64,000 nucleotides of DNA from Obrimoposthia wandeli (GCA_977020255.1 CDROCS010000288.1:1178001-1242000); one strand, 5' to 3'; shown: positions 4,281 through 60,244, counted from the first letter of the stretch. Numbers and translations: made by a program. The notes: generated by a model not told the origin, from the letters alone.

Positions 4281-4287
4281 ATAAGAA

Positions 4288-4289
<2 letters not shown>

Positions 4290-4322
<33 letters not shown>
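4290..4322. repeat. (TA)n microsatellite at the deletion junction between TIR and integrase
   Basis: Direct reading; integrase homology starts immediately after it. Confidence 0.9.
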
Positions 4323-4326
<4 letters not shown>

Positions 4327-5330: not shown

Positions 5331-5340
5331 TATGAAATCT

Positions 5341-8240: not shown

Positions 8241-8452
8241 AAAGGATTACTTTCATCTTAAGATATATAAATTAATATGAAGTTTTAAGAAGCATACATT
8301 TAATGAAATTTATAATGTTCAGCTAGTGTGTGTAAATTTTATTAGAAAAAGTAAATCAAGCAAACATCAAAAGCTAGAGGATTTAAACGTAAACAGAAGC
8401 AAAATATTGCTATAAACAAACGTAACAAAGTTGAAGAAACAATATTTGACAA

Positions 8453-9010: not shown

Positions 9011-9049
9011 TCTAATACCTAAACTTAATATTTAATAGACTAAAATTAA

Positions 9050-11846: not shown

Positions 11847-11896
11847 CTGATTACCTATTTAATTTATCTATTTTTAAAATCATAACAAATAATTAC

Positions 11897-12572
11897 TTCT
11901 AAAATCCAAAGAAGAATATCCAAATGTCAGTGCAGCTTGTTGGGTAAGAAAGTTTTCTTCATCAATGGCATCCATCCAGCTGTCATCAGTCAGATGGATA
12001 TGGGATTGGCCGATTCCATTTAATCAGCAGTTGTTGCTTTACTGAATTGCAGGCAGCTTCATCTCAAACTCTGATTTGATCCATCCAGTCGTAGTTTGAG
12101 AGTTGAGTTTATGGCTCCAGAGCAGTGGTCTTGTCCTCAATCTGCTTGGGTAATAACATCCTCCCACTCATTGTTGGTAAGTTGAGTGGATGATACGGCT
12201 GCAGGCATAGAAACTGGAGAAGCGACACACGTGGTGATTTCCGTACCAAAAGCAGTTGTTGGCTCGAATCTAGAGCTGGAACATTTGAAGAATTGTGCAC
12301 CGAATGGATGATGGTCTACATCTTGTTGTTGGCTATGAAACTGGAGAGATGGGCCTGATGTTCAGCGAAGAACACCGGATACTCCTTGTTCTGCAAAACA
12401 GACATACATAATATACCTGTCCATAAAACCTTATCCGATAGTAAGCAGACATGGAATTATGGCAGGTTTCTCCTCCTTGTGGAACCAAAGCACCACATTA
12501 TGCTGGGAACAAGTGACAAAAGTCTATAAAAAATTAAAATCGAAGTTTTAAACATACAAGTATCCTACCATA
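11897..12572 (-). pseudogene. Spliced leader exons upstream of pPolB in copy 1 (ATG micro-exon, CxxC/His exon, acidic W..DF repeats)
   Basis: Homologous to 27552-28210 of copy 2. ACTATG|gtagga donor; a 50-nt intron at 11896-11847 joins in frame to PIQLG.GLS of pPolB. Confidence 0.6.
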
Positions 12573-13528
12573 GTAATATTTTTAAAATTCGATTATTGAA
12601 GAGAAATAATTGAGAGCTAATTTACTAAAATTTATGCACAAAAATTTATCCTATTATCTGAAATTATTATTTTTTATTTAATTTATTCGTCCAATTAGAA
12701 GGATGTTTTATTTACATATCAGATAATAGTAAAATAGAATTATACACTTTTTAGATGCACAATGTTCACCATGATCACGATATAAACAGAAAATATTACT
12801 TGGAATTTTTAATAAATAATCATTTGAAATATTAAAAATGTTTAATCTTAATTTTTTGAAAATACTTTTTTTTACGTCTTGTACTTTTTGCCTAATTTAC
12901 ATTTAATCGAAAACATAAAAATTCCATTTTCAATATTAAAATTAGATTTTATAAAAAATCCAAATTTCACAAAAACCTCTATGAAAATATTTAGTGAGCT
13001 ATAACTTAGTAAATTTACTCTTATAATCTAAAGACTTAAACGGGATATCTACATAAGCATTTTGAAAGTAAATTGAATAAATTATCTGTAACAATTTCGG
13101 GAGTATCATTTAATCATTTGTGATAATTTCATTTTATAAATAATGAAATGTAAAATAAAGTTGATTCTATTTATATAAATTTCTAAATAATTTTAATCCA
13201 ATTATATTCTATAAAATAAATTTATTTTAAAAAAATTATATATTTAATAAAAATTTAAAGATATGATATAAAAACACAAATATATTACTAAAAATATGTA
13301 TCAAAGTAATTTTTATTAACAACTAGCATTTATCAAAGTAATAAAAACAGTCATTAAACTATAGCTAAATATATCTATTTATACATTATACTTAATTTTA
13401 TTTTAAAATAGGTGACACCTTAAAATATATATTTAAATATTTATGATATAATAATTTAAATAAAATTCTCAAATGAAAAAAAAGAAAGACTAAAGGTTAT
13501 ATTTTATAATGCATATTTTTCGGATAAT

Positions 13529-13607
13529 ATTTCACACATGCACGATTTTAAAGGACATGGGTACCCTTCTTATGAGGTGTGGATTAGATCAGACACATCC
13601 ACCTACT
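13529..13607 (-). repeat. Right TIR of Maverick copy 1
   Basis: Reverse complement reads AGTAGGTGGATGTGTCTGATCTAATCCACACC...TCCTTTAAAATCGTGCATGTGTG. Confidence 0.88.
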
Positions 13608-19003: not shown

Positions 19004-21011
19004 TGTCAGAATGTAATGATAGCTGTCAAGTAATGCAGAACAAATTAACTCGTACGAGGTCATGACCACATCAAATTATATAGGAGTAATATCTAGGTCA
19101 TTGAAATAATTGAAAAAAATCTTTTATGTGAGTTTTAAATTTAATGAACTTGAACTAAATTTAAATAAAAAAAATTATAAATTAAATTTGAATTAAATTA
19201 TTTTTTAAAAATTAACAAAATAAAATCTAATTGTAATAAATTTTACAAAACATAAAACCTTTTTTTATTTCAATTTAGCAAACCAAAATTTATATTGACT
19301 TAATCTCCAGATTAAAAAAAAATCTTAAATCGGGTTTCTCAATATTTGAAATCCCCACATATAGCAGAGTAAAGTGTCTGTTGCCAAACCTTAGAACATC
19401 GCCCCAGACGATATACTATCAGATCATCAGATCACAGGATATACTCCCTTGATCCAAACACACATCAAGCACAAATCATGGACAGTATATGATCTATGGT
19501 GATCTGTGTTGGGATCAGTGAATGCTGTTCTAAGATTATAACGTTTGAGAACGGATATTGTATTCTTCCAAGAAACCCCACTAAGAAAGGCTTGTAAAAT
19601 TTTTAATGGAAAAACCAGTAATCAATGAGAAATGTATGGTTAAATTTCTTAGAAAATATATATCAATCTTTGATGAATTTGTTTGATCTGCAGTACCATC
19701 AACTTGTAAATTGGCAACTATTAGTTCAAAATAGATGAGAATTAAAGTTGTGGGTTGACTCAAAAAATGAAATTTAAAACATAAATGATTTTTTATTGCA
19801 TTTAGCTTGATTACTTTATTGTTCAAACTTTGAATATATCTCTATATATGTTTTGTTTTAACTGTTTCTTTTCTGCTTTAATTTGTTGCTTTTCCACAGA
19901 ATAAAGTGTTATTTCAATAACTTTTCTTGTAACTTCAAATTATAATTCATGAATTCATATTCAAATATAAGATATTTTTGAAGAAAATAAGTGAAACACG
20001 ACAGTGAAATTTTCTCTTTCCTGAGGGTATTTGAGGCTGTTACATATTGAAGATTTCTGATTTAATGGTAATAAATTTCAATTTGGTTTTACTAATATTT
20101 TATTTATAAAATTTGGTTAATTTTTTTTTTCCAAAAAATTCACTTTTTGTAATATATAAATTACATCAAAAAGTTTATCATAAAGACCTATTAATTGACC
20201 AGCCTAGTCGTGAGCATACTTGATAATGTCATTTATATTCTCAAATGAAATGTAATACAGTGGTTTGTAGTCAGGATTGACATGTCTTTCAAGAAACATA
20301 TATAGCTCCATTGAAAGACATATCATAAAATAAAAATATCATAAACAACATTTCTAAAAATAACAAATCTACACTCATATTTTCAAAAAATACTATTCAT
20401 TTCTTGTTTTTTTTATCCTTTCATGCAGCACGTTTCGATTAATCTTTTTGAAAGATACATTTTATTTCTGAATTCGATTTAAGCGGTTCATGTATTTACA
20501 ATGAGTGGAAGCTGAGGCAATATGTGAAACAAGTTAGTTTTCATTTTATTTTCATTTTAAAATTTTCTAGGAAATTGTCGTTTTATAGGATGCAACACAC
20601 CACTGAAGGAAATAAATATATCATTAAGAAGTAGGTGGATGTGTCCGGTCTAATCCACACCCCTCCCCTCCACTGTCCTTTAAAACCGTGCATAGAGTGA
20701 AAATTCGTGCATGTGTGTGGAGTGAAATTTCGTATATGTGTGTCTCTATATATGTTTCCCCCCTCCCCCACATTTTTTTAAAATTTTTCTTTGAAATTTA
20801 CCATGAATCTCGAAAGTGGTTAGAGAAAACCACGGGAATCCATATTGGACCCGGCAGCTTATCGCAGACGAGATTTCAAATAATATATTACTACTATTTT
20901 TAAGAAAGATTACTACATGTTAAATATTTAGGTCAGAGAGAAAAATTAGATCTATATAATTTAGAGGAGAAAAAACAAAATACGAGTCAAAATTATTTTT
21001 CAAAACATTTA

Positions 21012-25099: not shown

Positions 25100-27299
25100 A
25101 GCATTTAGGGCGTAGGAAAATACAATCATCATACAAAACCTGTCCCTCGCTTTCATACTTAAATTTCCCGATAATATCCTTTAAACTCATAGAGTGTCAA
25201 TATAATAAAGCATATATTCAAGAAGATTTCGACAATTATTCGCCCAAAATGTACAGGCCTCATTATAGTCTTGAAGACTTACACTTTCAAATTCAGTTAT
25301 GGTGGGATTTCAGTTGTATTTTCTAAATCTGCAAAGGTTTTCGCAAATTTATACGGAAAAATCCCCTTATCGTTAACTGAAGCTGGGAACACTGGCTGTG
25401 TAATTGGCCATGCATTTAAAGATGCTGTTAAATTTTTTAAAGACCCACTCAAAAACTGCAGAGAATCTATGAATCTTAAACTGCAGGATTCAGTAGTATA
25501 TGCAGTTAAAGATAAATATTTCTCTGAAGTTTGAGGTATACATGAAATTTCCCAAGAGCTTAATGTACCCAACGCATATTTAAGTATATGATGCAAATCA
25601 TATCCTTTGAGGTTATGAAACACGATGGAAATTTGTGGTTTTTTAGGGAGACGACGGCCAAGGTTACAGAGGTGGCACGCCGCTCCCAAGTATCGCCCCG
25701 TAACATGATCGTGACCTCTGACTAACTTAGCCTGGATTCCACACAAATAACATAATCTACAAGAATTAAAATTAACCCAGTCTATGCCTCCCATGATCAT
25801 TGCTTGATGAGCATTAAGATCATACCACGGTTTGACAATTGTTGTTCCTAATTCTTCTAATTTTAACATAAAATCTAAAATACAATTTGGACCGGAAAAT
25901 TTATGATACTGTGTAAAATTGAGGCCTAAGAATAATAGTCCTGCCGAAGCCGGTAGGTGAATACTGTCATACTGGTCGTGCAATGCTAGAATTGACTCAA
26001 AATCTGCATACACTCTGAATTCCACGGGTATGCATTTTGCCCAATCCCTGAATTTTAAATCCCTATCCTTAGGCATGCTGAATAGCGTATTGTCATCAGG
26101 ATTCAGTGAACATAATGTCAGATGTTTGCTGTAAAAGAGCTCGGATCGGAATCCATGTAAACATCTATGACTCCACTTACATCTTATCCTAACCGGTAAG
26201 GCTCCATTATCTAAATTTAGAAGACAATCTAAACTGGGAATTGCAGCATAATGGATTTTTTTATTATTTTCAAGAAAAATTAAGTTGACCTGAGTCCCCT
26301 AATTTTTGCTCCTATAAATTACATCTACAAATGGATTTTTTAAAAATTTTTCATCTGTTACATTAACTGGGATATCAGTATTATATTTAAATACATTAAT
26401 ACTCAAGTTATTAAGGTGTTCAAATCTTGATATTGCAGTTAATTTAACAGGATACTGCCGTGATACTGCAATGTTTTAAAAAAATCTCAGTAATTACATC
26501 CCTTTTGAGGATGGCCAACACGCTATACAGAAAGCAAAGATTATCACTATTTTGTACGTTAACAATAGAACGTGAAAGTTGAAGAGATCTAGGTGAAGGA
26601 ATGTATGAACTCCCCGAAAGAAATATAATGTCAGTGAACTTTGTAAGACAAAGCTAACGTCGTGAATTCTAACTAGAGTCCATCCATTACTTAACTCGCT
26701 ATAATTAGCAATTTTTTCATCTAGGTTTCTCCCAATTTCAGTTACAAAATTATCATAGAAAACAGTTGCTTTATGTGAAATTACCCAAGTTTTAGTCTCC
26801 TCATTGACATTTTTAAACTGCACTGTTGCGCAAAATTGAACCTTAGCCTGTCCTAATTTGGTCACCTCTGATTTTAAAAGATTTTCAATATTTGAATCTA
26901 CACCTACGTTTAATAAAATTTCATTTCCTAATGGCACCTTAACTATAACATATTTATTATTTAGGTGATACTCTATAGTAGCACCATTTTCTCTACGTTG
27001 TTTTAGTGGGACCTTATTAAGAAATTGGCCTCGCCTCTTTCTTCCTACAGTCGCTGACAAACCTCCCCCTAATTGAACGGGAAGACAACTATTTATATTA
27101 ACAGTTGAGACAAACGCAGCTGAGGTTGACGGTGCTGCTATTGGTGATGCTGCCGACGTTGAGGCAATCGCAGCTGATGTAGTAGATGTTGCTGTAGTAG
27201 ATGCTGCTGTAGTAAGTGCTGCCGCAGTTGTAGATGCTGCATTTGGAATAGTAGCCGGCATTGCCGATGAAGAAGCGACTGTTGTAGAGGTTGATGCTG
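25100..27299 (-). pseudogene. pPolB with terminal-protein region; ~1.1 kb of the polymerase core is deleted relative to copy 1
   Basis: GWTLVRI, SYIP.P.SL...IVNVQNSDNLCFLYSVLA, VYADFESIL, DHDHVTGRYLGAAC..CN, FHNLKGYDLHHI, RFIDS.QFL, KGIFPY; jumps to IGKFKYE near 25200. Confidence 0.92.
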
Positions 27300-34103: not shown

Positions 34104-34859
34104 GGGGTACAGAAAAAATGGCAATGGAAATAATGGCAATGGAAATAATGGCAATGGAAAAAAGGCAATATGCAAAATATGGAAGAAATGACAAACTTAT
34201 TTTATTTTATAAAAAATAAATTAAAAGTAAAACCAAAAAATTATTATAAACAAAGATACATTTGTTCTCACATTTATTTACATTAAAATATTGTACAGTT
34301 ATGCCATTTTATTTACACATTATATATAACCAAAAGCACATGTTTAATATTATTTACACATGAACATTAATATTACTATGCAGTCTTCGAGAACATCCTA
34401 TCAACATGTAGATAGCATTTAAGCAAATAGTTCACTCATCAACCACTTGGATACAATTTGAGATTGCCTACATTTGAGATTTGAGAGAAGCCACTCTTTC
34501 AGAAGTGCAATTAGTTATTGTTGGTGCATTTGTTATCTAAATTTACTGTGATTATGACTTCATGGCTTCATATTTTTTAAATATTGACACATACATGTAC
34601 TTAACAAATTTATTTTAACAAATAATCAATTTGCTGCCTAATATCTAAATATGTTACAGAAGCCACTCTTTGAAAAGCGCTATTAGTAATTTTTGCTGTA
34701 AGTCTTATGAACTAATGTATACATTTGTTGTGACTTCAAGGCATCATTTTTATACTTCTTTTTAATTAAAATATTTATAATAACAAAAACAAAAATAATA
34801 TTTTATCTTTGCCATTTTTTCCATTGCCATTATTTCCATTGCCATTTTTTCCTACAACC
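34104..34859. mobile_element. 756-bp non-autonomous TIR element with an 8-bp TSD (Mutator/hAT-like)
   Basis: GGGAACGT is duplicated at 34096-34103 and 34860-34867. The TIRs are built of tandem AATGGCAATGGAAA(T/A) subunits. Confidence 0.82.
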
Positions 34860-36423
34860 GGGAACGTACTCCTACTAGTCCATATTTAAATCCAGTCTGG
34901 GTTTAAACCGTATCCGTAAAAATACAAAAAATAAATGTTGGAAAATATCAAAACCGCATTGCCACAGTCAGAATTATGGCACAAAGGTCTAACGAGCAAC
35001 ATGCACTGCATTTGTATTCTTCAAAAGATCAGAATTGTTTCTCTAGAAATAATCCCCAAAATACGCTACTTCTATTGAGTTGGCTTTTAATTATCCAAAT
35101 TAAAATTCACAGGAAATGTTTCTATTTTAATTCCTTACTTTTGTCTGAGTGAAAAAGAATAAATTACGTCTTGCAATTAAATTGGCAAAATGATGAAACG
35201 TCTTCGAAAATTGATTTGTTTTATAACGTCGAGCTAATAAAAAAACACTGTTAAGATATGCCTTGTTTTATAAATTTCCCATTATTCTTTATCTTGAATT
35301 CAGAAAATATAAGCGTATCTATTTGGTATTTTGGAAAATGTATAGATGGAATTCAATTTCTGACACTTACATGCTCATCTCCATGTGAGGTCATATAAAT
35401 ATAAAGCAGTGGTCAAAAACGGATACTTACTTACCATTACTTTGATGTTTCATGGCCTTTTATAACATGAGACAATTAACACATTTAGTAACATTATTTA
35501 AATAAAAATGACAAATATCAGTCATAAAATTGACAATAAATTAATTGGGATGGATGCACCTTGCTTGTCATTAAGCAGTTCTTCTACGTTAGGATGTGCT
35601 TCTGATAGTACAACTCTCATGTCATAGCTCTCATCCAATCTATTTTGGTTTTGATGGAAAGAAGAGTGGAAAACGCTGTATTATATTTTTCGGTGGTTGC
35701 AAATTAAATCATCACTTTAAAAGCCATTTTTTGCGATATCGGGATAGGACTGCTACTCATTTCACCATCATTTACGAAATCAATAAACTGATCTTGAATT
35801 TAGTTGTCCTCTGAGAGCAGATTATACAACAAAATGAATTTAAAAAAAGTACAGAAACAAGATAATGTTAAAGACGATGTCGACCATGGTTTGCTTGATT
35901 AACTATGTAAACAATGATATGAATTTTACCTTTATTTATATTCCATGACATCAATATTTCCTGGCGATATTTTAAAAGCGGTTAATATCGAATCAATTTC
36001 CATCGAATAGTCGCCGATTGTTGAATCAATTGATGGTCAGGTAATATCAAAATAAAGGTCATTACATTGTCTTCTTAGTTTTAATAAAAGGGGTTCAGAT
36101 TCTTCTTCTTCTTTGCTATCATTCGATATGACGATGACTTCATTTACCTCTATGTTGTCATTGTGTGTTTCCATTTCTTCATTTACTCCTTCTTTGGAGT
36201 CTGTTTCTTTGTCATTTTCATCCTTTTCATTACTTTCATCTTCATCATCCTCTATACATAATCATCAATATCTACTGGGATGATGTTATACTCATTATAT
36301 TGATTTTTAGTCGTTTTCTTTTTTTCGATATTATTCCCAATTGATATACCTTTCGTTTGTTCATTATTTGTATTATTATTTATTTAAAATTTCTTTTAAT
36401 AAAGACTTAATAAAGATTTACAG

Positions 36424-38418
36424 TTGACAAAGGAATACATCTCAACAATAGAAGATCATATTATAAAAGGTTATTTTAAAAAAATCGATGAGGAAGAAAA
36501 TAAAGATACAAAGTGGCTGATTCCACACTTTTCAGAAATAATAAGAGATAAAGAAACAACAAAAGTTCAGATATTATTTGACGCTGCAGCAAAGTTCCAA
36601 GGAGTTTGTTTAAATGACAAGACAGAAGCTGTACCAAAACTCCGGGAAGATTTATTTGATATATTGTTACGTTTCCGTAAGTTTGAAATTACACTGGCGT
36701 GTGACATATCAGAAATGTATTTATAGGGGTCATTGAAACCAGAAGATCTCCTGTAACACCGACATTTATAGCGTGAAGAAGTGGGGTACGTTTGAACTTA
36801 TGAATATTCTTGATTAGTTTTTGGAATCAAGGCGCCAACGTTCTTGACTCAGTTGATATCACGCGGAAATGTAGAAATTATTCAAGAAGTTTTTCAGAGG
36901 GCAGCCAAATCAGTGCTAAAGTCTACCTATATGAATGATATGAAATAAGTATTGCGCCTGATGGTTGAATTAAAAAACTTTCAGAAAGAGCAGGAATGGG
37001 GTCGTGAAAATGGACAACGAATAACAGATCTGTGTTGGCGTATATATCGGAAGAGTACATAATACAAAATATATAGGTTTGAAGAAACCGAGAATTTGGC
37101 AGCAAAAAAGTTAGATATAAGTTGGCAGTGTAAGGAAGACGTATTTAAATTTAATGTTTATTTACTGAAGTTTGAAAAGATAACAGAAATAAATTTCCTA
37201 GGTTTATTGTCTCGTGTTTCTGATCCAATGGGATTTGTTGGTCCAGTTATTATCCGATACAAGATAACCATGCAAGAGCTTTGGGTATCGGGACTAGAAT
37301 GGGACGAAAACATTTTAGAAGGTATTGACAGATAAGCAAGAAAATGAATCAGACTCTGCAAAGTTTGAGACATTTAATATACCACGATGTTTCATTAGAA
37401 TTACGGGCTCAGATGTAGAAATAAATGTTTTTCTGACGCATCTAAATATGCATATGGTTTGATAGCTTATTTAAGACAGACAAATATTATCAGCCGTTTA
37501 AAATTTGTTGCTACCAAGTTGAAAGTTTCGCCATTAAAAGTTAAAAAGAGCTAATGGCAGCTAAAGTAGGAGTAAAATTGGCGAAGACAATTCCTCGGGC
37601 TCTAGAATTAGATGCGAGGGCTTCTTTTGGTCCGATAGTTTGGACGTTCTCTGCCGGATACGACAACCATGAAAACTGTTCAAACTGTTTGTAGCCAATA
37701 GAGTTGGAAAAATTTAGAGTGAAATAAATATTTGTAATTGGAAATGTCCCAACGAAGGAGAACCTAGCTGATATGTTGTCTCGAGATGAGCCGGCAGATG
37801 TTTTGGCGAAATGAAAAATGTGGTGTAAAGGCCCGAAGTTCTTAATGCAGTGCGCTGATCAATGGTCAAAGAGTGCGGAACTTAGATCAAGATATCAGAA
37901 GAAAGACATATAAATAAAGTTTTTTTTGACAATTTCTGTAAGATACAATCTTAGAGGGTCTGTGTGAAACACAAGTTGTTTTAAGCTAGAGACATATTCA
38001 TGTCTTATACGCCTACGACGTGTAAGAGCTTGGAGTTCAAGATTAATACTCAATTGTAGACTCAACTGAGATCAGCAAACAGTGGGAGAGTTATCTGTAA
38101 ATGAGTTAAACGAGGTCGAGATCGAGCTAATAAGGAACAGCCAGAAAGAGTTTTTTAGTTATGAAGTAAGATTGAGAGACAAACTTAAGCCAATTCCAAA
38201 AACAAGTGATTTACAGAGGTTGAATCCTATCTTAGATGATGATGGGGTTTGGAGAAGTAATGCAAGAATCTTTCATGCGGACTGTTTAGGTTATGATGTT
38301 TGATTCCCGATTATTGTGAGCGAGAAGATCAGTTTGGCAAGGTTAATTATAAAATAAATTAACGAGAAGTTGAAGCATTACCTTGATATGCAGCATGTTC
38401 TAAAGGAGGTATGCGAAT
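36424..38418 (+). pseudogene. BEL/Pao LTR-retrotransposon pol remnant (RT, RNase H/DUF, start of the integrase region)
   Basis: WLIPHF..IRDKETTKVQILFDAAAK..GVCLND, LFDILLRFR..I.L.CDISEMYL, DPMGFVGP.IIR.KI.MQELW.SGLEWDE, FSDASKYAYG, LNPILDDDGV.RS..RI; many stops. Confidence 0.9.
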
Positions 38419-38949
38419 ATTCACCTACTGGCTTCGACAGGAATACTATTCTTTGACCTCAATATAACCCAGTATCAGGAATTTCCAGGTTTAAATTTTA
38501 TGTAAAAATTAGAGAAATTAGGAACAATTGTCAAACCGTGGTATAATCTTAATGCTCATCAGGCAATGATCATGTCTGGCGTAAACTGGGTTAATTTTAA
38601 TTCTAGTAGATATAGTTATTTGTGTGGTACCCAGTCTAAGTTAGTCAGAGATCTTGATTAAATTACGGGGCGATACCTGGGAACTGTGTGTAATCTTTGT
38701 AACCTTGACTGTCGACTCCATAAAGAACCACGCATTCCCATCGTGTTTTAAAATCTCAAAGGATATGATTTACATCATAAAATTAAATAGGCGTTGGGTA
38801 CATAAGGCTCATGGGAAATTTCTTGAATACCTCAAACTTCAGATAAATATTTATCTTTAACTGCATATACTAAATTCTACAGTTTAAAATTGATGGATTA
38901 TCTACAGTTTTTGAATGGGTCTTTAAAAAAATTAACTGAATCTTTAAAT
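38419..38949 (+). pseudogene. Isolated Maverick pPolB exonuclease-region fragment (third copy)
   Basis: Collinear with the reverse complement of ~25420-25960 (IHL.AS.G.LF, VKPWYNLNAHQAM, TGRYLG..CNLCN, LKGYDLH, PQTS.KYLSLTAY). Confidence 0.85.
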
Positions 38950-46446: not shown

Positions 46447-49143
46447 TATATACAATTTAAATGATTAAACAATTGCTTTCATCTGATCACTGGATAAATG
46501 AAAAATAATAAAACAAAAACCAATGATGTGTTGAAGTAAATTTGTTCATATATTTAAGATTTTTGCGCTTTAAAAACTTATTTATCTTATCTTAACAATT
46601 TACTTCGACAAAAAATCGTTCATTTTGAAAAGATCTTATATTTCTTAGCGTTGTTGTTAGTTTTGTTTTATAGTTTATCATTACCGTAGACTTGTACTTT
46701 TTAGATTTTATCGCTTATGCATTCTTCACGTATCAATTTACTAATTTATGCAATTCTAAGACACCTAAAAGCTCCGTTCTTTCACGTCTTTTGTCAAGCT
46801 TTCTTTGAGTCATCACGTACTAATAATATCAGATATATCTGCACAAGATATGGTTGTCTAGTTGATTATTTAATTAACAGTCAGTCAACGACTAAATTAG
46901 TTCAACGCGTACTTTAGAGTAGATATAATAAGCAAAAATAACATTTTTTGGGGTAAAATTGATTGATCATAATTTATTTTATAGACATTTAAGACAATTT
47001 AGAGATTATAATTGACTTTTTCGTCAAAATAAATAAAACATTTTTTTAAAGCACTCAATGCATTCACAAACTGAAAAAAACACAGCCAAATTCTAAGGGA
47101 CTGTTTTCTATTTACAAATTTTATTAATATAACTAGATGAAGATATATAAAGAATAAAGAAATAGTTTTAGTACTAGTTTGAATGTCAAAGCAAAATAAT
47201 GACGCTGTAAAGAATCAGTTTATTCCGGATATGGGTTATAAAAATGAGACATAAAATAACATTTAAAACCATTCCGTATATATTTCGAACTTTTATTTTG
47301 TTAATACTTTGTCAATCCTCAGCAACCAAAGGGACAAATGAAACGATTTTTAAAATTATTCTATAGTTCATAAAAACAAATAATATCATATAATTATAAA
47401 AAACCATTGAAATGTTGTATAACTAATATTATAGTTCATAAATGTTTCGATTCAATTAAAAATAACAAATTAAACATTATCTGTCTATACGTTACACTAT
47501 TTTGAAAGGCTGCAATTTTCTTGACTTACAGCGAACTCAAGTGATAATTATAAACAGCAACGATTTATATATTATTCGACCGATGATTAAATTATATTCT
47601 TATTTAAAAAGATTTTTTCAGGAATCAGCATATTAATATAAAAGGGTAGCATTCAAAATTTCAACTGATTTTGTTTTAAAAAATCGATTATTTCAAATTT
47701 AAGATTTGTTTACAAAGAAATTAAAAATCGTAAGTTTCGTAAATTATTCAGGAAATATAAATTGTAAAATATTTTAATTCTAAATTTTCTGAAAGTCCAT
47801 TGATTTTGTAGGTTACACTACGATTTATAAATAAAACTAAAAGTTAATAAACTTATTTTTAATTTTCAATTTTGATACACAAATTCAGTGACGAGGGCTT
47901 AATTCTACTTTTCCATTAAATTGCAATTACATATGAAAAATGTTATAGTAAAAAAATTTAAAGATTTTTTTATAAAATATTTCTGATTTTTAGACACATT
48001 AAGGGGAATAAAACCAAAATAAATTCACACAAAAATATCTTTCTTTAAAATTAACGTTTTTAAGGGTTGATAAAAATGACAGGGGTGTTTCAGCAGTATT
48101 AGTGGAAAGGAAATGTAGATTTTGTGAGAACATTTAGGTACATATTTGTAACAATACCTTCATTTATAATTTTATACACATTATAATTTGAAGATCATCA
48201 TCACCGGTGTCAGTAAAATTTCAAGTAAAGCCAAAAATGATCGAATGTCTCAGTAACTTTGCGAAGGATATGTTAGACACATTTCAAACTACTGATGCAC
48301 ACTGAACACAAGGAAACATTTCTCAGATGACCGTTTCTTCGATCAACTAGAAGAAACTGACATTTTCAATGATTAAATGACAATTTAGAAATATGTATAA
48401 TAAATGGTGGACCGTAAAACGGGAAGTTCACTGCTCGATGAACTTACAGTTACAAAGTACGACTGTGATTCTCATTAATTGCGAATGAATTTTATACACT
48501 TTGAAAGACAAGCCCGACTTATTTCGATAAACCATTCTCAGAGAAAAGGTTGTGTCAATTCCCAGAACTCAGCACTCTGAAAGCAACTTACTTCTGGAGG
48601 AAGTGAATCCCTATTTCACAGCTAAAGTACAGTCCCAATTTTGTTGCATTTTTAAATTGGTAGAGTGTAGATATATTATCCTGCCACTCTGCTCAAATGA
48701 AGTTTCTTTTCACAGTTTGCCGTATTGATCTGCATGATTGCCACAAACTTAAGCTGGGACTCTTTTGTCATTACTGCAGAAGCAGAAGGAGTGGCTACCC
48801 CATATGCCCACTGGAACTCTGTAATTTGGCAAGCCGCATAGTTGGTTGTTCGGGAACTTAAGGAAAAGATCAAGCCTCGGCATTGCTTCCACTATCAAGA
48901 TCTGCAGGAGTGTCAAATAGGGACATATTTGACTTATATATAACATTAGGTTAAAGAAAGTGCAGAATTGAAAATTTATTGAATATCGATTGTGTTCAAT
49001 TAAAACCTGGGTCTCACATTGACTCCGGATATCCGTTGATTTTACTACTAGGATCATTACGCAACACTTGTACAATTGTAAAATCATGTATACATTCTAT
49101 AAGTCACAAATGCACTATATGATAGTAGGTAGAAGGATGAAGT

Positions 49144-49304
49144 CTAGATCACTTGACCCCCCCTAAAGGGTGTCACACCATAAAGATGTCTTGCCACACC
49201 ATAAGAGTATATGTTGCCTCACCTCTGGTGAGGCAACATATACCCTTATGGTGTGACACCCTTTAGGGGAGGGGAGGGGGAGGGGGAGGGGTCAAGTGAT
49301 CTAG
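49144..49304. other. Subterminal hairpin with a G-rich bulge (left; the mirror copy is at 58152-58335)
   Basis: CTAGATCACTTGACCCC...ATATGTTGCCTCACC-TCT-GGTGAGGCAACATAT...GGGGTCAAGTGATCTAG; G4-like (G4-5A)n at ~49266-49291. Confidence 0.92.
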
Positions 49305-49371
49305 TCTCCACCCTTCTTTGATATACCACTAAAGGGTTGTGGTCGACCATAATTCAAAGGGTCAAGTGGTC

Positions 49372-49470
49372 TAGTCTCCACCCTTCTTTTTGTGATATAG
49401 TCTCCACCCTTCTTTTTGTGATCTAGTCTCCACCCTTCTTTTTGTGGTCTAGTCTCCACCCTTCTTTTTG
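49372..49470. repeat. Tandem ~24-bp repeat TAGTCTCCACCCTTCTTTTTG(T/G)G x4 (mirrored at ~57986-58085)
   Basis: Direct reading. Confidence 0.88.
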
Positions 49471-51329
49471 GCTAACCACTATGATCGTCCATAATTCAAA
49501 GGATCAAGGTCAATTTTGACTTGAAACTTTGAAGGTATAATTAAGATCATGTGAAAGTTCGCACTTAAAGGTTAAGGAATGTATTACGTAATAATACACA
49601 TACTATTCTATGTGAAAATCAAGGCTAAAGTTCACTCTTATCAGTTAAGGAATGTGGTTTTTAACACACACACTATTCTATGTGAAAGTTTAGATCAAAA
49701 TTTTTTTCCTAGGCTCATACATTTATAGAATTATGATAAAATTTCTTTAAATAACTTAAATTATATATTAAAATAAAAAATAAAATAAGAAAGAAGTCAG
49801 AGAATAATACAAAATTAAACATATTTAATATGTAATTTCATAATATCATCTTCAAACTTAAGTGAATAACATTTGTAAAGTAAGAAAATCCATTCTTTAT
49901 ACATTCTTTCCGATTTAACAACTAAGTTACAACGGAATTAATAGAAAAAGAAAAAAAACAAAAAAACAACAACACTAAGTTTAACGCTATGAATGAAAAT
50001 TAGTAAAATATTAATTTATTTGAATATTTGAATGAAGGTTTGAAAAAAAAAATGAGAGTTAGATTGAATGTAAATGAATACAAGTATGAATGCAAATGAA
50101 TGCAAATACAAGTAAGTGTCTTAGTAAGTGAATGTAATTTAAAAATAAGAGTGTCGATAGTTTGATTGAATGCGAGTGTAATTTAGACTATAAGTAAATT
50201 AAAATAGAGTTTTCGTATGAATAAAGTTATGTTAAGTTACAGTAAATTAATAACAAGTAAGCAACTATAAGAAGCAGTGATATTGAAGTATGTTAAAAAT
50301 TAGAACGACTAAGTTATGGCAAGATTAATAGAAAACAACACCAAATTTGACAGTATGAATGAAAATTAGTAAAATATTAATGTATTTAAATGTATTTGAA
50401 TGATAGTTTGAATAAATTACAGTTAGATTGAATGTAAATTAATGCAAGTATGAATGCAGGGTCAAGTACAAGTAAGAAAGAATACGCAATATGCAAGTAC
50501 GAATGTCAATTATGAATGAAAATTAGTAAATATATTAATGAATTTGAATGTTAGTTTAAATATATGAGAGTTAGAATGAATGTAAGTGAATGCAAGTATG
50601 AATGTAAGTGAATGCAAATATGAATGCAAATACAAGTAAGAATCTTTGCAAGTGAATCTTAAACTACAAGTGAGTACTAGCTAATTATTAAATTAATACT
50701 ATCAATCAATGAAGATGATGTAAGTTATGATGAAGTTATAATAATTAAGATGCGAACTTTCATATTTTCACATAGTTTACTTCCATATTAAAGTTAACCT
50801 TTCATACATACTCATGCAATTAAATAATTAAAATGTCTTATCTCGTTTGATAAAATTCCTTAATTAAAATATTTTAAATAATTAGATAAATTTAAATTCT
50901 TTATTTTTAAATAACTTGATTATAAATTTATATTCGTAAATATAATTGAAATTATCAATATTCATTTCTCTTTTTAACTATTCGAAAATATATTTATATA
51001 CAAATTTAGTAAATTAACTCAACAAACAATTTTATTTTTTTTAATTACTTGATATTTTTGTCATTGTCTTATTAATATAATATGAATATTCAATTTATTT
51101 CTTCAAAAATTCATTTTTATATGTTAAATAATATTTCTTTATCACATTATTGTGGTTTTTATCAAGTGATTTTAACCTTAAACTATAAAAAATATTTTAA
51201 TTATAAAGTTAGTAGCTGTATTCCGTCGACTGCATATAATATAAATTTTAAATATAAAGTACTATTAAATGTATTCTTTCAAATGGTAAAAGTTCTTTCG
51301 AATTATTTAATTTTGTTTACATTCGAAAA

Positions 51330-52440
51330 TTGACTTGTAAATATAATATTATAATTTTGCATATATTCACTTTAATATGTTGTAAGTTATTACTTTAATA
51401 TAATTTACAACCTAAACTTCAAGTAATTTACTTAATAATCTTAATATTAATGATTTGTTCGATAAATTGACTTGTAAACATAAAATATTTAAAACAAACT
51501 TCAAGTAGTTTACATATTAATCATAATTTAAGGATTTGTACAATAAATTGACTTGTAAACATAATTTATTGTGCATATTCATTTAATATATTGTAAGTTA
51601 ATACTGTAATATTTCATTACATGAAATGTAATTCATAGTTTACTGTCGTTTACAATAAATTGACTTGTAAACATAATTTATTTTGCATATATTTAGTTTA
51701 ATACGTTGTAAATTATTACTGTAATATTCCATTACATAAAAAAGTAATTGATATTTTACTGTCGTTTACTATAAATTGACTTGTAAACATAATATATTTA
51801 TGCATATATTAACTTTAATATGTTGTAACTTATTACTTTAATATCATTTTCAACAAAAACTTCAAGTAGTTTACTTATTAATCATAAGTTTAATGTTTTG
51901 TATCTTAAATTGACTTGTAAACATAATTTAATATGTTGTAAGTTATTACTTTAATATTCCATACCATAAAATTAATTGATATTTTACTATCGTTTACTAT
52001 AAATTTACTTGTAAACATAATATATTTATTCATATATTCACTTTAATACGTGTAAGTTATTACTTTATTATAATTTACAACAAAAACTTCAATTCAGTTT
52101 AATATATTGCAAGTTAATACTCTAATATTTCATTACATAAAAAGTCATTGATAGTTTACTATCGTTTACAATAAATTTATTTGTAAACATACGTTATTGT
52201 GGTATTTTATCAAGTGATTTTAACCTTAAACTGTAAAAATATTTTAATTATAAAGTTAGTAGCTGTACCTCACCGACTGCATATAATATAAATTTCAAAT
52301 ATAAAGTACTATTAAGTTTATTATTTCAAATAGTAAATGTTTTTTCGAGTTATTTAATTTTGTTTACTAGACATTCGAAAATTGACTTGTAAACATAATA
52401 TAATTTTGCATATATTCACTTTAATATGTTGTAAGTTATT
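51330..52440 (+). repeat. AT-rich satellite, forward polarity (core AAATTGACTTGTAAACATAAT)
   Basis: The core recurs at roughly 80-200-bp intervals within mosaic subunits. Confidence 0.9.
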
Positions 52441-52779
52441 CGAACTTGTGTACTTGTACAAAATTTGTAGATATTTCAATAATTAAAAGCGATATAAAAG
52501 TTAATTATCAAATAATAAATAAAAAATAGTTAAATTAAATCTAATTTATGATGTTGCAATGCTAAATTCTTCTTTAAAACCAATGTTTAACATGAAATAC
52601 TTAAAATCAATGGTTTTTTTTTTTATTTTTTTTATTTTTAAAAGTAACTTTATTTAAACGTATTGGTATATGATTGATATAATACAATACTAAACTAATG
52701 TAAATTTCAGTTATGAGTTGATCAACTATGAATATTTTTAACTTATTTCTTGATTTTTACAACATTTCGAATAGTTTAC

Positions 52780-55700
52780 TTAATAATCATAATATTAATA
52801 AACTATGAATTACTTTTTATGTAATGAAATATTACAGTATTAACTTACAATATATTAAATTGAAAATATGCAAATTATATTATGTTTACAAGTCAATTTA
52901 TTGATCAAATCATTAAAATTATGATTAATAAGTAAATTACTTGAAGTTTTGGTTGTAAATTATATTAAAGTAATAACTTACAACATATTAAATTGAAAAT
53001 ATACCAAAATAAATTATGTTTACAAGTCAATTTATTGTACAAAACATTAAACTTATGTTTAATAAGTAAACTACTTGAAGTTTTTGTTGTAAATTATATT
53101 AAAGTAATAAGTTATAACATATTAAAGTTAATATATGCATAAATATATTATGTTTACAAGTCAATTTATAGTAAACGACAGTAAAATATCAATTACTTTT
53201 TATGTAAAGGAATATTACAGTAATAATTTACAACGTATTAAATGAATATGCACAATAAATTATGTTTACAAGTTAATTTATTGATCAAATCATTAAAATT
53301 ATGTTTAATAAGTAAACTACTTGAAGTTTTTGTTGTAAATTATATTAAAGTAATAACTTACAATATTTTAAACTGAATATATGCAACAACAAAAAATATT
53401 ATGTTTACAGGTCAATTTATTGTACAAAACATTAAACTTATGTTTAATAAGTAAACTACTTGAAGTTTTTGTTGAAAATTATATTAAAGTAATAACTTAC
53501 AACATATTAAAGTGAATATATGCATAAATATATTATGTTTACAAGTCAATTTATTGTAAACGATAGTAAACTATCAATTACTTTTTATGTAATGTAATAT
53601 TACAGTAATAACTTACAACGTATTAAAGTGATATATGTATAAATATATTATGATTACAAGTAAATTTATTGTACAAAACATTAAACTTATGATTAATAAG
53701 TAAACTACTTGAAGTTTTTGTAGTAAATTATATTACAGTAATAACTTACAACATTTTAAACTGTATATATGCAACAACAAATAAATATTGTAGTTTACAA
53801 GTAAATTACTTGAAGTTTTTGTTGTAAATTATATTAAAGTAATAACTTACAACATATTAAATTGAAAATATACCAAAATAAATTATGTTTACAAGTCAAT
53901 TTATTAAAAAAAACATTAAACTTATGATTAATAAGTAAACTACTTGAAGTTTTTGTTGAAAATTATATTAAAGTAATAAGTTACAACATATTAAAGTTAA
54001 TATATGCATAAATATTTTATGTTTACAAGTAAATTTATAGTAAACGACAGTAAAATATCAATTACTTTTTATGTAATGGAATATTACAGTAATAACTTAC
54101 AACGTATTAAAGTGATATATGTATAAATATATTATGATTACAAGTAAATTTATTGTACAAAACATTAAACTTATGATTAATAAGTAAACTACTTGAAGTT
54201 TTTGTTGAAAATTATATTAAAGTAATAACTTACAATATTTTAAACTGAATATATGCAACAACAAAAAATATTATGTTTACAGGGGTCAATTTACAACGTA
54301 TTAAACTAAATATATGCAAAATAAATTATGTTTACAAGTCAATTTATTGTAAACGACAGTAAACTTTGAATTACTTTTTATGTAATGAAATATTACAGTA
54401 TTAACTTACAGTATATTAAATTGAATATATGCATAAATATATTATGTTTACAAGTCAATTTTCGAATGTCTAGTAAACAAAATTAAATAACTCGAAAAAA
54501 CATTTACTATTTGAAATAATAAACTTAATAGTACTTTATATTTGAAATTTATATTATATGCAGTCGGTGAGGTACAGCTACTAACTTTATAATTAAAATA
54601 TTTTTACAGTTTAAGGTTAAAATCACTTGATAAAATACCACAATAACGTATGTTTACAAATAAATTTATTGTAAACGATAGTAAACTATCAATGACTTTT
54701 TATGTAATGAAATATTAGAGTATTAACTTACAATATATTAAACTGAATTGAAGTTTTTGTTGTAAATTATAATAAAGTAATAACTTACACGTATTAAAGT
54801 GAATATATGAATAAATATATTATGTTTACAAGTAAATTTATAGTAAACGATAGTAAAATATCAATTAATTTTATGGTATGGAATATTAAAGTAATAACTT
54901 ACAACATATTAAATTATGTTTACAAGTCAATTTATGATACAAAACATTAAACTTATGATTAATAAGTAAACTACTTGAAGTTTTTGTTGAAAATTATATT
55001 AAAGTAATAAGTTATAACATATTAAAGTTAATATATGCATAAATATATTATGTTTACAAGTCAATTTATAGTAAACGACAGTAAAATATCAATTACTTTT
55101 TATGTAAAGGAATATTACAGTAATAATTTACAACGTATTAAATGAATATGCACAATAAATTATGTTTACAAGTTAATTTATTGATCAAATCATTAAAATT
55201 ATGATTATTAAGTAAAGTACTTGAAGTTGTTTGTTGTAAATTATATTACAGTAATAACTTACAACATATTAAATTGAAAATATACAAAAAAATATACTAT
55301 GTTTACAAGTCAATGTATTGTACAAAACATTAATATTATGATTTATTAAGTAAACTACATGAAGTTTTTGTAGTAAATTATATTACAGTAATAACTTACA
55401 ACATTTTAAACTGTATATATGCAACAACAAATAAATATTGTAGTTTACAAGTAAATAACTTGAAGTTTTTGTTGTAAATTATATTAAAGTAATAACTTAC
55501 AACATATTAAATTGAAAATATACCAAAATAAATTATGTTTACAAGTCAATTTATTAAAAAAAACATTAAACTTATGATTAATAAGTAAACTACTTGAAGT
55601 TTTTGTTGAAAATTATATTAAAGTAATAAGTTACAACATATTAAAGTTAATATATGCATAAATATTTTATGTTTACAAGTAAATTTATAGTAAACGACAG

Positions 55701-56125
55701 TAAAATATCAATTACTTTTTATGTAATGGAATATTACAGTAATAATTTACAACGTATTAAACTAAATATATGCAAAATAAATTATGTTTACAAGTCAATT
55801 TATTGTAAACGACAGTAAACTATGAATTACTTTTCATGTAATGAAATATTACAGTATTAACTTACAATATATTAAATGAATATGCACAATAAATTATGTT
55901 TACAAGTCAATTTATTGTACAAATCCTTAAATTATGATTAATATGTAAACTACTTGAAGTTTGTTGTAAATATTTTATTTTTACAAGTCAATTTAATGTA
56001 CAAATCATTAATATTAAGATTATTAAGTAAATTACTTGAAGTTTAGGTTGTAAATTATATTAAAGTAATAACTTACAACATATTAAAGTGAATATATGCA
56101 AAATTAAAATATTATATTTACAAGT
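52780..56125 (-). repeat. The same satellite in reverse polarity, with higher-order duplications
   Basis: The core ATTATGTTTACAAGTCAATTT recurs ~20 times; the block starting at 53741 is repeated at 55391 (1,650-bp offset). Confidence 0.9.
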
Positions 56126-58355
56126 CAATTTTCGAATGTAAACAAAATTAAATAATTCGAAAGAACTTTTACCATTTGAAAGAATACATTTAATAGTACT
56201 TTATATTTAAAATTTATATTATATGCAGTCGACGGAATACAGCTACTAACTTTATAATTAAAATATTTTTTATAGTTTAAGGTTAAAATCACTTGATAAA
56301 AACCACAATAATGTGATAAAGAAATATTATTTAACATATAAAAATGAATTTTTGAAGAAATAAATTGAATATTCATATTATATTAATAAGACAATGACAA
56401 AAATATCAAGTAATTAAAAAAATAAAATTGTTTGTTGAGTTAATTTACTAAATTTGTATATAAATATATTTTCGAATAGTTAAAAAGAGAAATGAATATT
56501 GATAATTTCAATTATATTTACGAATATAAATTTATAATCAAGTTATTTAAAAATAAAGAATTTAAATTTATCTAATTATTTAAAATATTTCAATTAAGGA
56601 ATTTTATCAAACGAGATAAGAAATTTTAATTATTTAATTGCATGAGTATGTATGAAAGGTTAACTTTAATATGGAGGTAAACTATGTGAAAATATGAAAG
56701 TTCGCATCTTAATTATTATAACTTCATCATAACTTACATCATCTTCATTGATTGATAGTATTAATTTAATAATTAGCTAGTACTCACTTGTAGTTTAAGA
56801 TTCACTTGCAAAGATTCTTACTTGTATTTGCATTCATATTTGCATTCACTTACATTCATACTTGCATTCACTTACATTCATTCTAACTCTCATATATTTA
56901 AACTAACATTCAAATTCATTAATATATTTACTAATTTTCATTCATAATTGACATTCGTACTTGCATATTGCGTATTCTTTCTTACTTGTACTTGACCCTG
57001 CATTCATACTTGCATTAATTTACATTCAATCTAACTGTAATTTATTCAAACTATCATTCAAATACATTTAAATACATTAATATTTAATAATTTTCATTCA
57101 TACTGTCAAATTTGGTGTTGTTTTCTATTAATCTTGCCATAACTTAGTCGTTCTAATTTTTAACATACTTCAATATCACTGCTTCTTATAGTTGCTTACT
57201 TGTTATTAATTTACTGTAACTTAACATAACTTTATTCATACGAAAACTCTATTTTAATTTACTTATAGTCTAAATTACACTCGCATTCAATCAAACTATC
57301 GACACTCTTATTTTTAAATTACATTCACTTACTAAGACACTTACTTGTATTTGCATTCATTTGCATTCATACTTGTATTCATTTACATTCAATCTAACTC
57401 TCATTTTTTTTTTCAAACCTTCATTCAAATATTCAAATAAATTAATATTTTACTAATTTTCATTCATAGCGTTAAACTTAGTGTTGTTGTTTTTTTGTTT
57501 TTTTTCTTTTTCTATTAATTCCGTTGTAACTTAGTTGTTAAATCGGAAAGAATGTATAAAGAATGGATTTTCTTACTTTACAAATGTTATTCACTTAAGT
57601 TTGAAGATGATATTATGAAATTACATATTAAATATGTTTAATTTTGTATTATTCTCTGACTTCTTTCTTATTTTATTTTTTATTTTAATATATAATTGAA
57701 GTTATTTAAAGAAATTTTATCATAATTCTATAAATGTATAAGCCTAGGAAAAAAATTTTGATCTAAACTTTCACATAGAATAGTGTGTGTGTTAAAAACC
57801 ACATTCCTTAACTGATAAGAGTGAACTTTAGCCTTGATTTTCACATAGAATAGTATGTGTATTATTACGTAATACATTCCTTAACTTTTAAGTGCGAACT
57901 TTCACATGATCTTAATTATACCTTCAAAGTTTCAAGTCAAAACTGACCTTGATCCTTTGAATTATGGACGATCATAGTGGTTAGCCAAAAAGAAGGGTGG
58001 AGACTAGACCACAAAAAGAAGGGTGGAGACTATATCACAAAAAGAAGGGTGGAGACTATATCACAAAAAGAAGGATGGAGACTAGACCACTTGACCCTTT
58101 GAATTATGGTCGACCACAACCCTTTAGTGGTATATCAAAGAAGGGTGGAGACTAGATCACTTGACCCCCTCCCCCTCCCCCTCCCCTCCCCTAAAGGGTG
58201 TCACACCATAAAGGTGTCTTGCCACACCATAAGGGTATATGTTGCCTCACCAGAGGTGAGGCAACATATACTCTTATGGTGTGGCAAGACATCTTTATGG
58301 TGTGACACCCTTTAGGGGGGGGTCAAGTGATCTAGACTTCATCCTTCTACCTACT
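54390..58355 (-). repeat. Right arm of the giant inverted repeat
   Basis: See left arm; only scattered substitutions are visible by eye. Confidence 0.92.
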
Positions 58356-60244
58356 TATGATGGTTATAATCGCGTTAGTTTAAATAAAATCAGACAATCT
58401 GATCAAAATAAAATTTCAAACGGCGAAACAAAAAATTGAAGCGTTGGAGTTTCTAAATGAACAAAAAAACTTCCAACATCTCTAGATTGAGAGGAAAACG
58501 ATCTAATGACAATTGAGGATAACTTAATCTATGTACTTTGTTATTTTTTAATATGGTAAATTCCATAAACTTAATAATGTATAAAATATTTATCATTTAT
58601 AATTTGTAATTTAATTTTTACAATAATTGAACTAGAATCTCTGATAAGTTGTATTCAAAATTTCTATTAAAATAGATTTGATTTGTGCCTCAATTTTACG
58701 CAAACAGACGATTAAATATTCAGGAATAATCATTTTGGGACTGTAATGTATTCTGTTTGTTCTAATTATGTTTCTTTTATTCATTTGAATGATAACTGAA
58801 CTTTGACCACATCGACCCATAACCGAACGACGATGGCTATCGATCGAGCGAATTGGCCGTGCCCCTGAGACTGATGCTGATGACGAGGAATTAATTGACC
58901 CTTGAGGAGTTCGCTAAGCATGCGGAGCTGAAGAAAACTGCCACTTATCTTCTGACGATTCTCTCTCACTCTCTATCCGACACAATTTATCTCAATTATC
59001 CAATTTGATTGCTCTCCAATTAAATTCGACTAAGAGGACGACCTTCTTAACTGATAATCACAGTTTTAATCGAAAGTTATACCACATAAATAAGTAGACT
59101 TTCTCTAACTCTGTATTTTCTAATTATCCTTTTTGTAAGTAATAGATAACCGGTTTCACGGTGAGTAATTATCGACCATAAGCAGCAATACCTGAAAGTT
59201 ATATAAATGCTCAGACACTGTTTATTCTTAATACGTGATGTGGATAAAAGGTACCCATGCTTGTATTAAAACAAATAACATATCAAATCAGAATTTTATA
59301 TTTAGGTTACAAAAATAGAAAACATTTGACATAATATCGTGTGACTTGTTTTCCAAATAATTGTCTACAATCATCATTTGGCTTTTATCACGTAAATGTG
59401 ATTTTTAATTAGCAAACGGCCAAGAATTGGACTGAATGGAGGCAAAAGGGTGTTGCAATGCCATCAGTCCACTAGTGTATATTGTTACTAATGTGACTTT
59501 TATCATGGGTTTGAAGTGTTGTTGTACCGCCAAAAGGTGGATTTCTTTTCATTTCTGTTGTATTTCGATTACAAGGTTAGAATGGTAATGGCTTTTGATA
59601 TTTCCAGGAGTAAGTCTACCTGTAAACATGCTCAACGTCAAGTATTTACAATACATCCATTTAAAAAGAGACAAATTGGGGTTTCTTCTTGGGTGATAAC
59701 ATTGTCTAAAATGTTTCTCCAAATTGATCAAACAGTTTCAAGTTCGAAGTGCATGCAGCCAAGCGATTTTCATCATCTCGCTAGCCGTAAACTTAGGTAC
59801 GAACCTGGGTCGTATAAGGGGAATTTCTGGTGCTTAATAAATTATGATTGACAATCTCATTTATAAGAAATACAATTCATTGAACAACGTTAGTTTCCAC
59901 AAAAGTAAACTTCACATAAATGCATTCTTTTGTCATCGCACTCATTTGAAAGTTATTGATTAAACAGCGGTTTGTAGGGATATATATCATTTGAATTCAA
60001 ACTCCTGTGTGTAGAGGTATGTGATACTTCTAATCCAGCTGGTAAATGATGAGATGTGAAACATCTGTTTTCATTTCATCTTTAGCAGGGGAAAATGAAA
60101 GGTTAGCGAACAGAACATATGCTGTAAAATTAGCGAATCTGAATTAGTGAGATTACAACTATGATAGGAATTGGGGAAAAGTTTTAATTCTGTGAGATTC
60201 TTCACAAGCAGATGATGCTATTGAATGTATGATACATTCTAAAC

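Follow-up and report, generated by a model that had tools for sequence, protein, structure and literature searches.

Element C is a 9,232-bp non-coding, Maverick-type fold-back element that occupies positions 49124-58355 of the window, the 64,000-nucleotide stretch of Obrimoposthia wandeli DNA that was analysed. Each of its ends folds into a long hairpin that leaves just the terminal heptamer, AGTAGGT, unpaired, and the 22-nt motif that adjoins this heptamer is present in six copies per terminal inverted repeat (TIR). Most plausibly, as far as sequence can tell, C is a defective Maverick whose end works like a protein-priming origin, folded locally and present in reiterated form. The fold-back end would have been kept for its multiplied helper-binding sites and because it supplies an origin that is duplex locally and has its last 7 nt frayed, a reading of one element to which we give a probability of about 0.45.

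The element is bounded by a 6-bp target-site duplication (TSD), TATGAT, found at 49118-49123 on the left and at 58356-58361 on the right (both + strand), and this is the only 6/6 match among the pairings of 10 AGTAGG with 6 CCTACT sites. The AGTAGGT ends are identical to those of the coding neighbours and differ from the exact (AGT)2 end given for vertebrates in the available text of PMC8097293. The perfect TSD and the intact heptamers indicate that C integrated with whole ends. The gene set of an autonomous Maverick (pPolB, integrase, capsid, ATPase, and protease) is absent, the longest stop-free frame being 85 codons, and no Pfam match was found in the 2 of 3 internal frames of 62-89 codons that were scanned. 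On these grounds C is filed as a non-autonomous Maverick-type fold-back. Subterminal inverted repeats are a trait of Helentrons and DINE-type elements; such an identity is ruled out for C by the 6-bp TSD and the Maverick-like ends. The Maverick context proposed in the initial annotation is thus borne out by the TSD, the heptamers, and the likeness to the ends of neighbours that encode integrase and pPolB.

The left arm, or TIR, of C runs from 49124 to 52440 (+ strand). Its outer part, 49124-52101, is 96.5% identical to 58355-55351 in an alignment of 3,013 columns, with 10 substitutions across the outer 2.15 kb; the TIR is about 3.0-3.3 kb long. The stretch at 51739-52438 is also 99% identical to a second segment of the right arm, 54402-55101. 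A 280-bp core at 52441-52720 is the only unique sequence in the element, and the interior repeat motifs change strand across it. The right arm, 52721-58355 (- strand), consists of the TIR and an expanded, AT-rich composite satellite with periods of 81-484, which accounts for some 2.3 kb of extra sequence. The TIR is modular throughout: a module of ~150 bp is triplicated in each copy (75-82%; 49968-50116, 50334-50476, and 50511-50657, mirrored in 56800-57488), and one of ~60 bp is duplicated ~450-590 nt from the ends. In the two end blocks of 0.43 kb the hexamer AAGGGT is found 19 times, with 0.2 occurrences expected. We take TCAAGGTCA and CCATAAA, found at 57927-57950 and in the hairpin arms, to resemble NR5A/FTZ-F1 and Caudal/Abd-B sites. 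A 26-letter pattern of the end had 0 exact matches in prokaryotic genome contigs, and the terminal 456 nt gave no blastn match among the plasmids or phages of the prokaryotic collections. A scan for bacterial promoters and terminators was uninformative, with 3 promoter-like sites against 1.0 +/- 0.8. Rfam gave nothing at the gathering score and three sub-threshold matches to miRNA precursors, as is expected for any long stem.

The initial annotation had drawn attention to a large hairpin at 58152-58335, and this structure exists at both ends when they are folded as single-stranded DNA. The right copy has a minimum free energy of -102.6 kcal/mol, compared with -28.5 +/- 3.4 for shuffled sequences (z -21.7, 0/200 as stable), and the left copy reaches -66.3 (z -12.2, again 0/200). 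The annotated interval is an 81-pair run, unbroken on its terminal arm, in which 58152-58169 and 58189-58251 pair with 58255-58335 around an AGA loop at 58252-58254; a 19-nt (C4-5T)n bulge occupies 58170-58188. The inner stem, put at ~62 bp in that description, measures 63-64 bp, and the outer stem beyond the bulge 17-18 bp rather than 17 (the split can be drawn as 18 + 63 or 17 + 64). Both mismatches of the inner stem are G.T on the + strand (58214/58292 and 58234/58272). The hairpin had been placed ~20 nt inside the terminus, yet after one A.A mismatch a further 12 bp, including 2 G.T, form between 58139-58150 and 58337-58348. The complete right fold-back, 58139-58348 (+ strand), therefore has outer stems of 12 and 18 bp, the C-rich bulge, the 63-bp inner stem, and the loop, with 93 pairs in total (89 Watson-Crick and 4 G.T), and it stops only 7 nt from the terminus. 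These last nucleotides form an unpaired 3' flap, with an unpaired probability of 0.49-0.83 against at most 0.06 in the 7 nt before them, and just 1/7 bases would match if the stem were extended past its boundary. In the whole 64 kb, stems of at least 16 bp are limited to the two hairpins and one (AT)n run.

The left fold-back, 49131-49317 (+ strand, loop at 49224-49226), is held in the same orientation. As had been claimed for 49144-49304, it is the reverse complement of the right copy minus 21 nt, the missing piece being one repeat unit of the inner arm between two TTATGGTGTG direct repeats; there are also two 1-nt homopolymer differences, no substitution, and the same five mismatches at both ends. 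The 2/2 ends in one orientation are too few to exclude flip/flop. Four of the five mismatches are G.T on the 3'-terminal, or template, strand, which folds better than its complement (-102.6 versus -95.4). An end-to-end panhandle is more stable than the local hairpins, at -267.6 against -103.1 and -66.8. Between the TIRs, 0 substitutions are observed in the hairpin where 1.0 is expected (P 0.36), which does not amount to significant purifying selection.

The hairpin appears to have been built from the end of C itself. Terminal positions 8-101 are repeated in inverted form at 105-217 at both ends, and the arms consist of the terminal motif, the C-tract, and a spacer motif of C. The structure accordingly looks native rather than acquired, the end of C having been duplicated in inverted orientation. 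The spacer module, at 58098-58136 (- strand), and the hairpin arm have CTAAAGGGT..ACCATAA in common (local score 27, p 0.003), and a second spacer compared with the inner arm shows no match (p 0.85); these and the other p-values are post hoc and derive from mononucleotide shuffles.

A G4-capable tract lies in each hairpin. On the right it covers 58165-58191 (- strand) and contains five G4-5 runs with 1-nt A linkers on the 5'-terminal strand, and is C-rich on the + strand; on the left it covers 49266-49291 (+ strand). These G4/i-motif tracts have a G4Hunter score of 3.36; their distance from the terminus is ~165-190 nt, and not ~20 nt as had been reported, and they belong to the strand that has its 5' end there. 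The only other windows with a G4Hunter score of at least 1.5 in the 64 kb are two short C-tracts in the left TIR of a coding Maverick, B (20644-20684 and 20744-20783). C has C8 at positions 34-41 and B has CCCCTCCCCT, a short C-tract, at the corresponding place (31-40); a second coding Maverick, A, has only CCCCT at 51-55 and G6 at 41-46 of its left end and CCC at its right end. Most simply, the G-tract of C would be the inverted image of its native C-tract, changed in length on one arm. In terms of geometry alone a four-tier G4 fits the bulge at a cost of about 3 bp; the ViennaRNA G4 energy of -136.8 was rejected as a number, the term not being calibrated for DNA, and was kept for this geometry. 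The G4 is probably secondary.

The heptamer lies outside the hairpin at 49124-49130 (+ strand) and 58349-58355 (- strand), where it forms the unpaired 3' flap of the fold. It is invariant in 5/5 aligned ends, its first six letters by selection, as the ends were found by them. The stem boundary falls precisely at its edge. Next to it, at positions 8-29 (58327-58348, - strand, on the right), is a 22-nt motif similar to the ends of the coding Mavericks, with 12/22 matches to the left end of A, 11/22 to its right end, and 12/22 to the left end of B (shuffle p 0.001, 0.008, and 0.001). Six copies of this motif are present in each TIR of C, five of them internal, inverted, and matching at 18-19/22 as scored in the right TIR. 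Four are arranged in tandem with a 26-nt period at 57991-58090 (+ strand), and the fifth, 58139-58160, is the outer hairpin arm; the corresponding left copies are at 49366-49465 (- strand) and 49296-49317. An A-rich spacer stands before each internal copy, and the heptamer before none of the five per TIR. The suggestion in the initial annotation of a multimerised binding site survives in its general idea, although the multimer best supported is this 22-nt motif and not CACACCATAA. The latter does occur twice per stem side, as had been stated, but only in the right copy; the left copy has 2+1.

The coding neighbours carry a single copy of the motif, with no internal copy at 16/22 or better in A or B. 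Maverick A, 4191-13607, is a decayed coding element; its TIRs are short and diverged, and its TSD, GAGAAA/GAGGTA, is degenerate (4/6). Maverick B, also decayed, begins at 20630 and retains fragments of rve (integrase), a chromodomain, and DNA_pol_B_2 (pPolB); within the pPolB frame there is also a weak match to Endonuclease_7. The two are ~80% alike over several blocks. The right end of B may be at 31562, where the heptamer and a downstream motif (p 0.001) are shared without the motif at 8-29 (8/22, p 0.19) and without a TSD match. In keeping with the initial annotation, a long hairpin is missing from the coding ends, four in number including the doubtful one (both strands, z -0.1 to -2.5). 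Their own terminal motif is weakly self-complementary (20635-20660 and 13578-13602), with a 6-bp stem and a 12-nt loop, and is a possible seed for fold-back events. The idea that C arose from A or B by internal deletion was rejected, as the interior of C is unrelated: a blastn search with C of both Mavericks and of the remaining window gave three hits, all of 42 nt or less (E 0.003). Since C shares just 19/29 terminal bases with the coding ends as well, its helper family probably lies outside the window, and the contrast with A and B, which lack the hairpin, compares C with cousins only and is weak evidence.

No Rep, NS1, or recombinase Pfam match was found in the 90 window frames scanned (22 + 68). 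The 68 were drawn from 88 listed frames of 62-89 codons, and their one sub-cutoff hit was ignored. Exact protein look-up retrieved 0/4 of the window proteins submitted. A search with the integrase gave 621 relatives, none with genomic context, and among the 120 matches listed just one names an organism, an ant. The window also contains an isolated inverted fragment, 38409-38949, that is 82% identical to the pPolB region of B (25414-25972) and adjoins a Pao/BEL retrotransposon relic at 36403-37335; a ~740-bp MITE-like element at 34112-34852, the inverted ends of which are arrays of a 15-bp repeat; and an intronless, GC-rich GPCR gene of the rhodopsin family in AT-rich DNA (1522-2919, - strand). 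The sole match to this GPCR at E <= 1e-20, with 8,000 candidates scored, is Schmidtea mediterranea GCR368 (47%).

The proposed mechanism begins with a polymerase that, while copying from the end, would have switched onto its own nascent strand by snap-back or copy-back. The same template switching may have acted both on the scale of 210 nt and on that of 9 kb. Copy-back would have carried the native C4-5T tract across as a G-run, which may then have been lengthened by slippage on one arm or have shrunk on the other. Non-autonomous elements are, by the established view, mobilised in trans by a helper, and the protein-primed polymerase and integrase of a helper Maverick would copy and integrate C in this way. 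In duplex DNA, the six motifs per end would act as multiplied loading sites. In a single-stranded intermediate, the 3' end would snap back within ~210 nt, by which the motif would become double-stranded and the 7-nt initiation template would be left frayed. Such an end would represent a local mini-panhandle on which protein priming could begin without recourse to the opposite end, 9 kb distant; it would not act as a DNA primer.

Several observations argue for a local, protein-primed origin. The fold ends at the invariant heptamer, and the adjoining motif has been multiplied independently by tandem duplication; there are five internal copies per TIR and none at 16/22 or better in the coding Mavericks; and four of the five mismatches are G.T on the template strand. 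The likeness of positions 8-29 to the coding ends, the integration of C with whole ends, the motif shared by arm and spacer, and the match of the C-tract with that of B also favour this explanation. A gene-less element retains just its cis needs, and C points to an end made of two parts, a 7-nt tip kept in single copy and a 22-nt motif that repays multiplication. In phi29, the strongest origins are those with 6 unpaired terminal nucleotides, while activity is weak or abolished where there are 5' overhangs or a 5' hairpin overhang, or where the displaced strand is missing (PMC4150772, available text). The second part of these data counts against a local origin in C, as the partner strand of its fold continues as a long overhang. 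Protein priming in Streptomyces requires fold-back hairpins in the 3' overhang (PMC4513846, available text), and panhandle models exist for adenovirus and PRD1, for which direct evidence of panhandles is described as lacking (PMC11886824, available text). As the end-to-end panhandle of C is the more stable structure, its local fold can only be kinetic. Four transitions that are all G.T on one strand have a 1-in-8 chance and fit a plain GC-to-AT bias, and this, together with the absence of a substitution deficit in the hairpin and the 21-nt loss from the left copy, tells against the model.

The chief rival explanation, unlikely in our judgement but the closest of the alternatives, is that the hairpin is a neutral scar: a fold-back accident that drift fixed and that end homogenisation passed on to both TIRs, so that hairpin, repeats, and G-run are all idle. 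C is indeed folded back at two scales and full of slippage repeats, and the hairpin shows neither a deficit of substitutions nor protection from the loss on the left. The authors of a study of Halocafeteria also offer accidental annealing as a source of TIR palindromes (bioRxiv 10.64898/2026.07.28.741278, available text). Against a neutral scar, the inner arms differ at only 2/64 pairs whereas the outer 30 bp differ at 3 and carry the 19-nt bulge; moreover, the boundary spares just the heptamer, and the same motif has been multiplied by a second route, tandem duplication. If the scar is neutral all the same, C shows that giant Maverick TIRs can come from fold-back template switching.

Self-priming of a parvovirus-like kind, which the initial annotation had envisaged as an acquired function, fares considerably worse and is doubtful. 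Here the 7-nt flap would be trimmed, the 3' end would prime a host or helper polymerase, and the end would be restored by nicking or from the other TIR. The fold at the 3' end is very stable, and snap-back synthesis could also account for the giant fold-back. Self-priming has been proposed for the TIR palindromes of virophages and for those of Polinton-like viruses (PLVs) (bioRxiv 10.64898/2026.07.28.741278, available text), and exonucleases of the pPolB type, as in phi29, trim short 3' protrusions (PMC4150772, available text). The 3' end of C is, however, unpaired. Trimming would delete the heptamer, yet the heptamer is found at both ends with a perfect TSD. C has no ORF and no resolving enzyme, the scanned frames of the window gave no Rep or recombinase, both ends, albeit only two, are in one orientation, and the arms derive from C's own end. 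In addition, the Halocafeteria palindromes accompany replicases that are not pPolB (bioRxiv 10.64898/2026.07.28.741278, available text), whereas the neighbours of C encode pPolB.

It is less probable still that the inner part of the hairpin is a Tc1/mariner-type hairpin MITE, inserted into an older, short TIR palindrome before the TIR was duplicated. The segment in question, positions 42-164, is 123 nt long, starts and ends in TA, and shows less divergence than the outer stem; each of its arms holds two direct repeats. The terminal TA is forced by symmetry, though, and no copy of the segment was found outside the two TIRs in the 64 kb. The arm also resembles the resident spacer, and the outer 30-bp palindrome would still need explaining.

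A role in host processes, in which the hairpin and G4 stall the fork or extrude as a cruciform to promote loop-out and excision, or cap the displaced 5' end, seems more remote again. The high G4Hunter score and the geometric fit of a four-tier G4 to the bulge are consistent with it, as is the standing excision model of lagging-strand loop-out (PMC4046053, available text). The G-rich strand is nevertheless the one expected to carry the terminal protein, and the tract is ~170 nt inside, with a short counterpart in a coding TIR. Long reads are known to produce artefactual palindromes, and errors in reads could account for the 21-nt loss as well as the differences in homopolymers, but a sequencing or assembly artefact from fold-back reads is contradicted almost completely by the same five mismatches at both ends, the 10 substitutions between the TIRs over 2.15 kb, and the perfect TSD.

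The reading of the end as a local protein-priming origin can be extended to a bolder and clearly tentative proposal, that animal Mavericks spawn copy-back, "defective interfering" satellites with an evolved snap-back origin, five additional loading sites, and, on the other strand, a G4 that blocks 5' re-annealing. If this were true, C would out-replicate its helper, its end would give a first mapping of the Maverick core origin (positions 8-29), and the single-stranded intermediate postulated by the Polinton replication model would gain sequence evidence. The excision, priming, and copying of Mavericks rest on a model and not on biochemistry, and the ends of C give short synthetic DNA substrates with which protein priming can be tested against self-priming.

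Of the known systems, parvovirus and AAV termini resemble C in having a long, stable hairpin with a 3-nt loop in both inverted ends. Their hairpins are T- or Y-shaped with a paired 3' OH, exist in flip and flop forms, and are nicked by Rep/NS1, whereas C has an unpaired 3' end, no flip/flop in 2/2 ends, and no Rep/NS1. Copy-back or snap-back defective genomes and Foldback/Galileo elements are gene-less, with long inverted arms derived from one end, reiterated cis sites, and internal tandem repeats; C differs from them in its Maverick ends and 6-bp TSD. Protein priming in Streptomyces telomeres and phi29 takes place on a 3' end that is structured by fold-back (PMC4513846, available text) or frayed over ~6 nt (PMC4150772, available text), although the proteins and sequences of these systems and of adenovirus are unrelated to those of C, and Streptomyces has several short GNA-loop hairpins in place of one long stem. 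Casposon TIRs sometimes contain palindromes, but these elements are prokaryotic and coding, with a Cas1 integrase and short TIRs (median 56 nt; PMC4046053, available text).

With Mavericks, or Polintons, C shares the 6-bp TSD, the AGT-type end, long TIRs, and the end motif of its integrase- and pPolB-coding neighbours. It departs from them in its lack of genes, its TIRs of ~3.0-3.3 kb, the 280-bp core, the 93-pair terminal fold-back, and the six end motifs per TIR. Kapitonov and Jurka are said to have described non-autonomous Polintons in 2006. Vertebrate Mavericks have a 6-bp TSD, (AGT)2 or (AG)3 ends, and TIRs of 46-1,447 bp, and the strings "palindrom" and "hairpin" have 0 occurrences in the main text of that survey (PMC8097293). 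Insect Polintons include forms with ~2-kb gene-bearing TIRs and forms that are polB-less (10.1101/2025.02.07.637071), Tlr1 has been viewed as a non-autonomous Polinton (PMC5499653), and the TIR of Gezel/PgVV is made of repeated units (10.1101/2022.07.28.501842), each according to the available text. The accessible parts of PMC11296320, PMC6431247, PMC3014272, 10.1101/2024.01.15.575659, and PMC5499653 contain no animal-Maverick hairpin of this kind. More generally, no terminal fold-back in an animal or non-autonomous Maverick was found in the literature searched, to which Kapitonov and Jurka 2006, Pritham 2007, and Repbase do not belong. The first of these is a source given for accidental annealing in the Halocafeteria text (bioRxiv 10.64898/2026.07.28.741278, available text) and may already mention such palindromes.

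Close counterparts of C are the virophages (subtypes 1, 2, 5, and 6) and the PLV (subtype 4) of Halocafeteria seosinensis, which have palindromic TIR ends and for which both a self-priming model and an accidental alternative have been put forward. As in C, where the palindrome starts 7 nt from the TSD, a TIR palindrome lies beside the TSD of an rve-integrated relative of Polintons. These are coding elements of a protist, typified by capsid genes and linked to non-pPolB replicases, with a palindrome of 52 nt in subtype 5 (bioRxiv 10.64898/2026.07.28.741278, available text). The fold-back of C, in contrast, is found in an animal, in a non-coding element with pPolB-encoding neighbours, and combines 210 nt of palindrome with a 7-nt flap, a reiterated motif, and a G-tract. 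TIR palindromes have thus already been reported in protist virophages and PLVs and in casposons, and C extends the question of what they do, raised in 2026 for the protist elements, to an animal Maverick.
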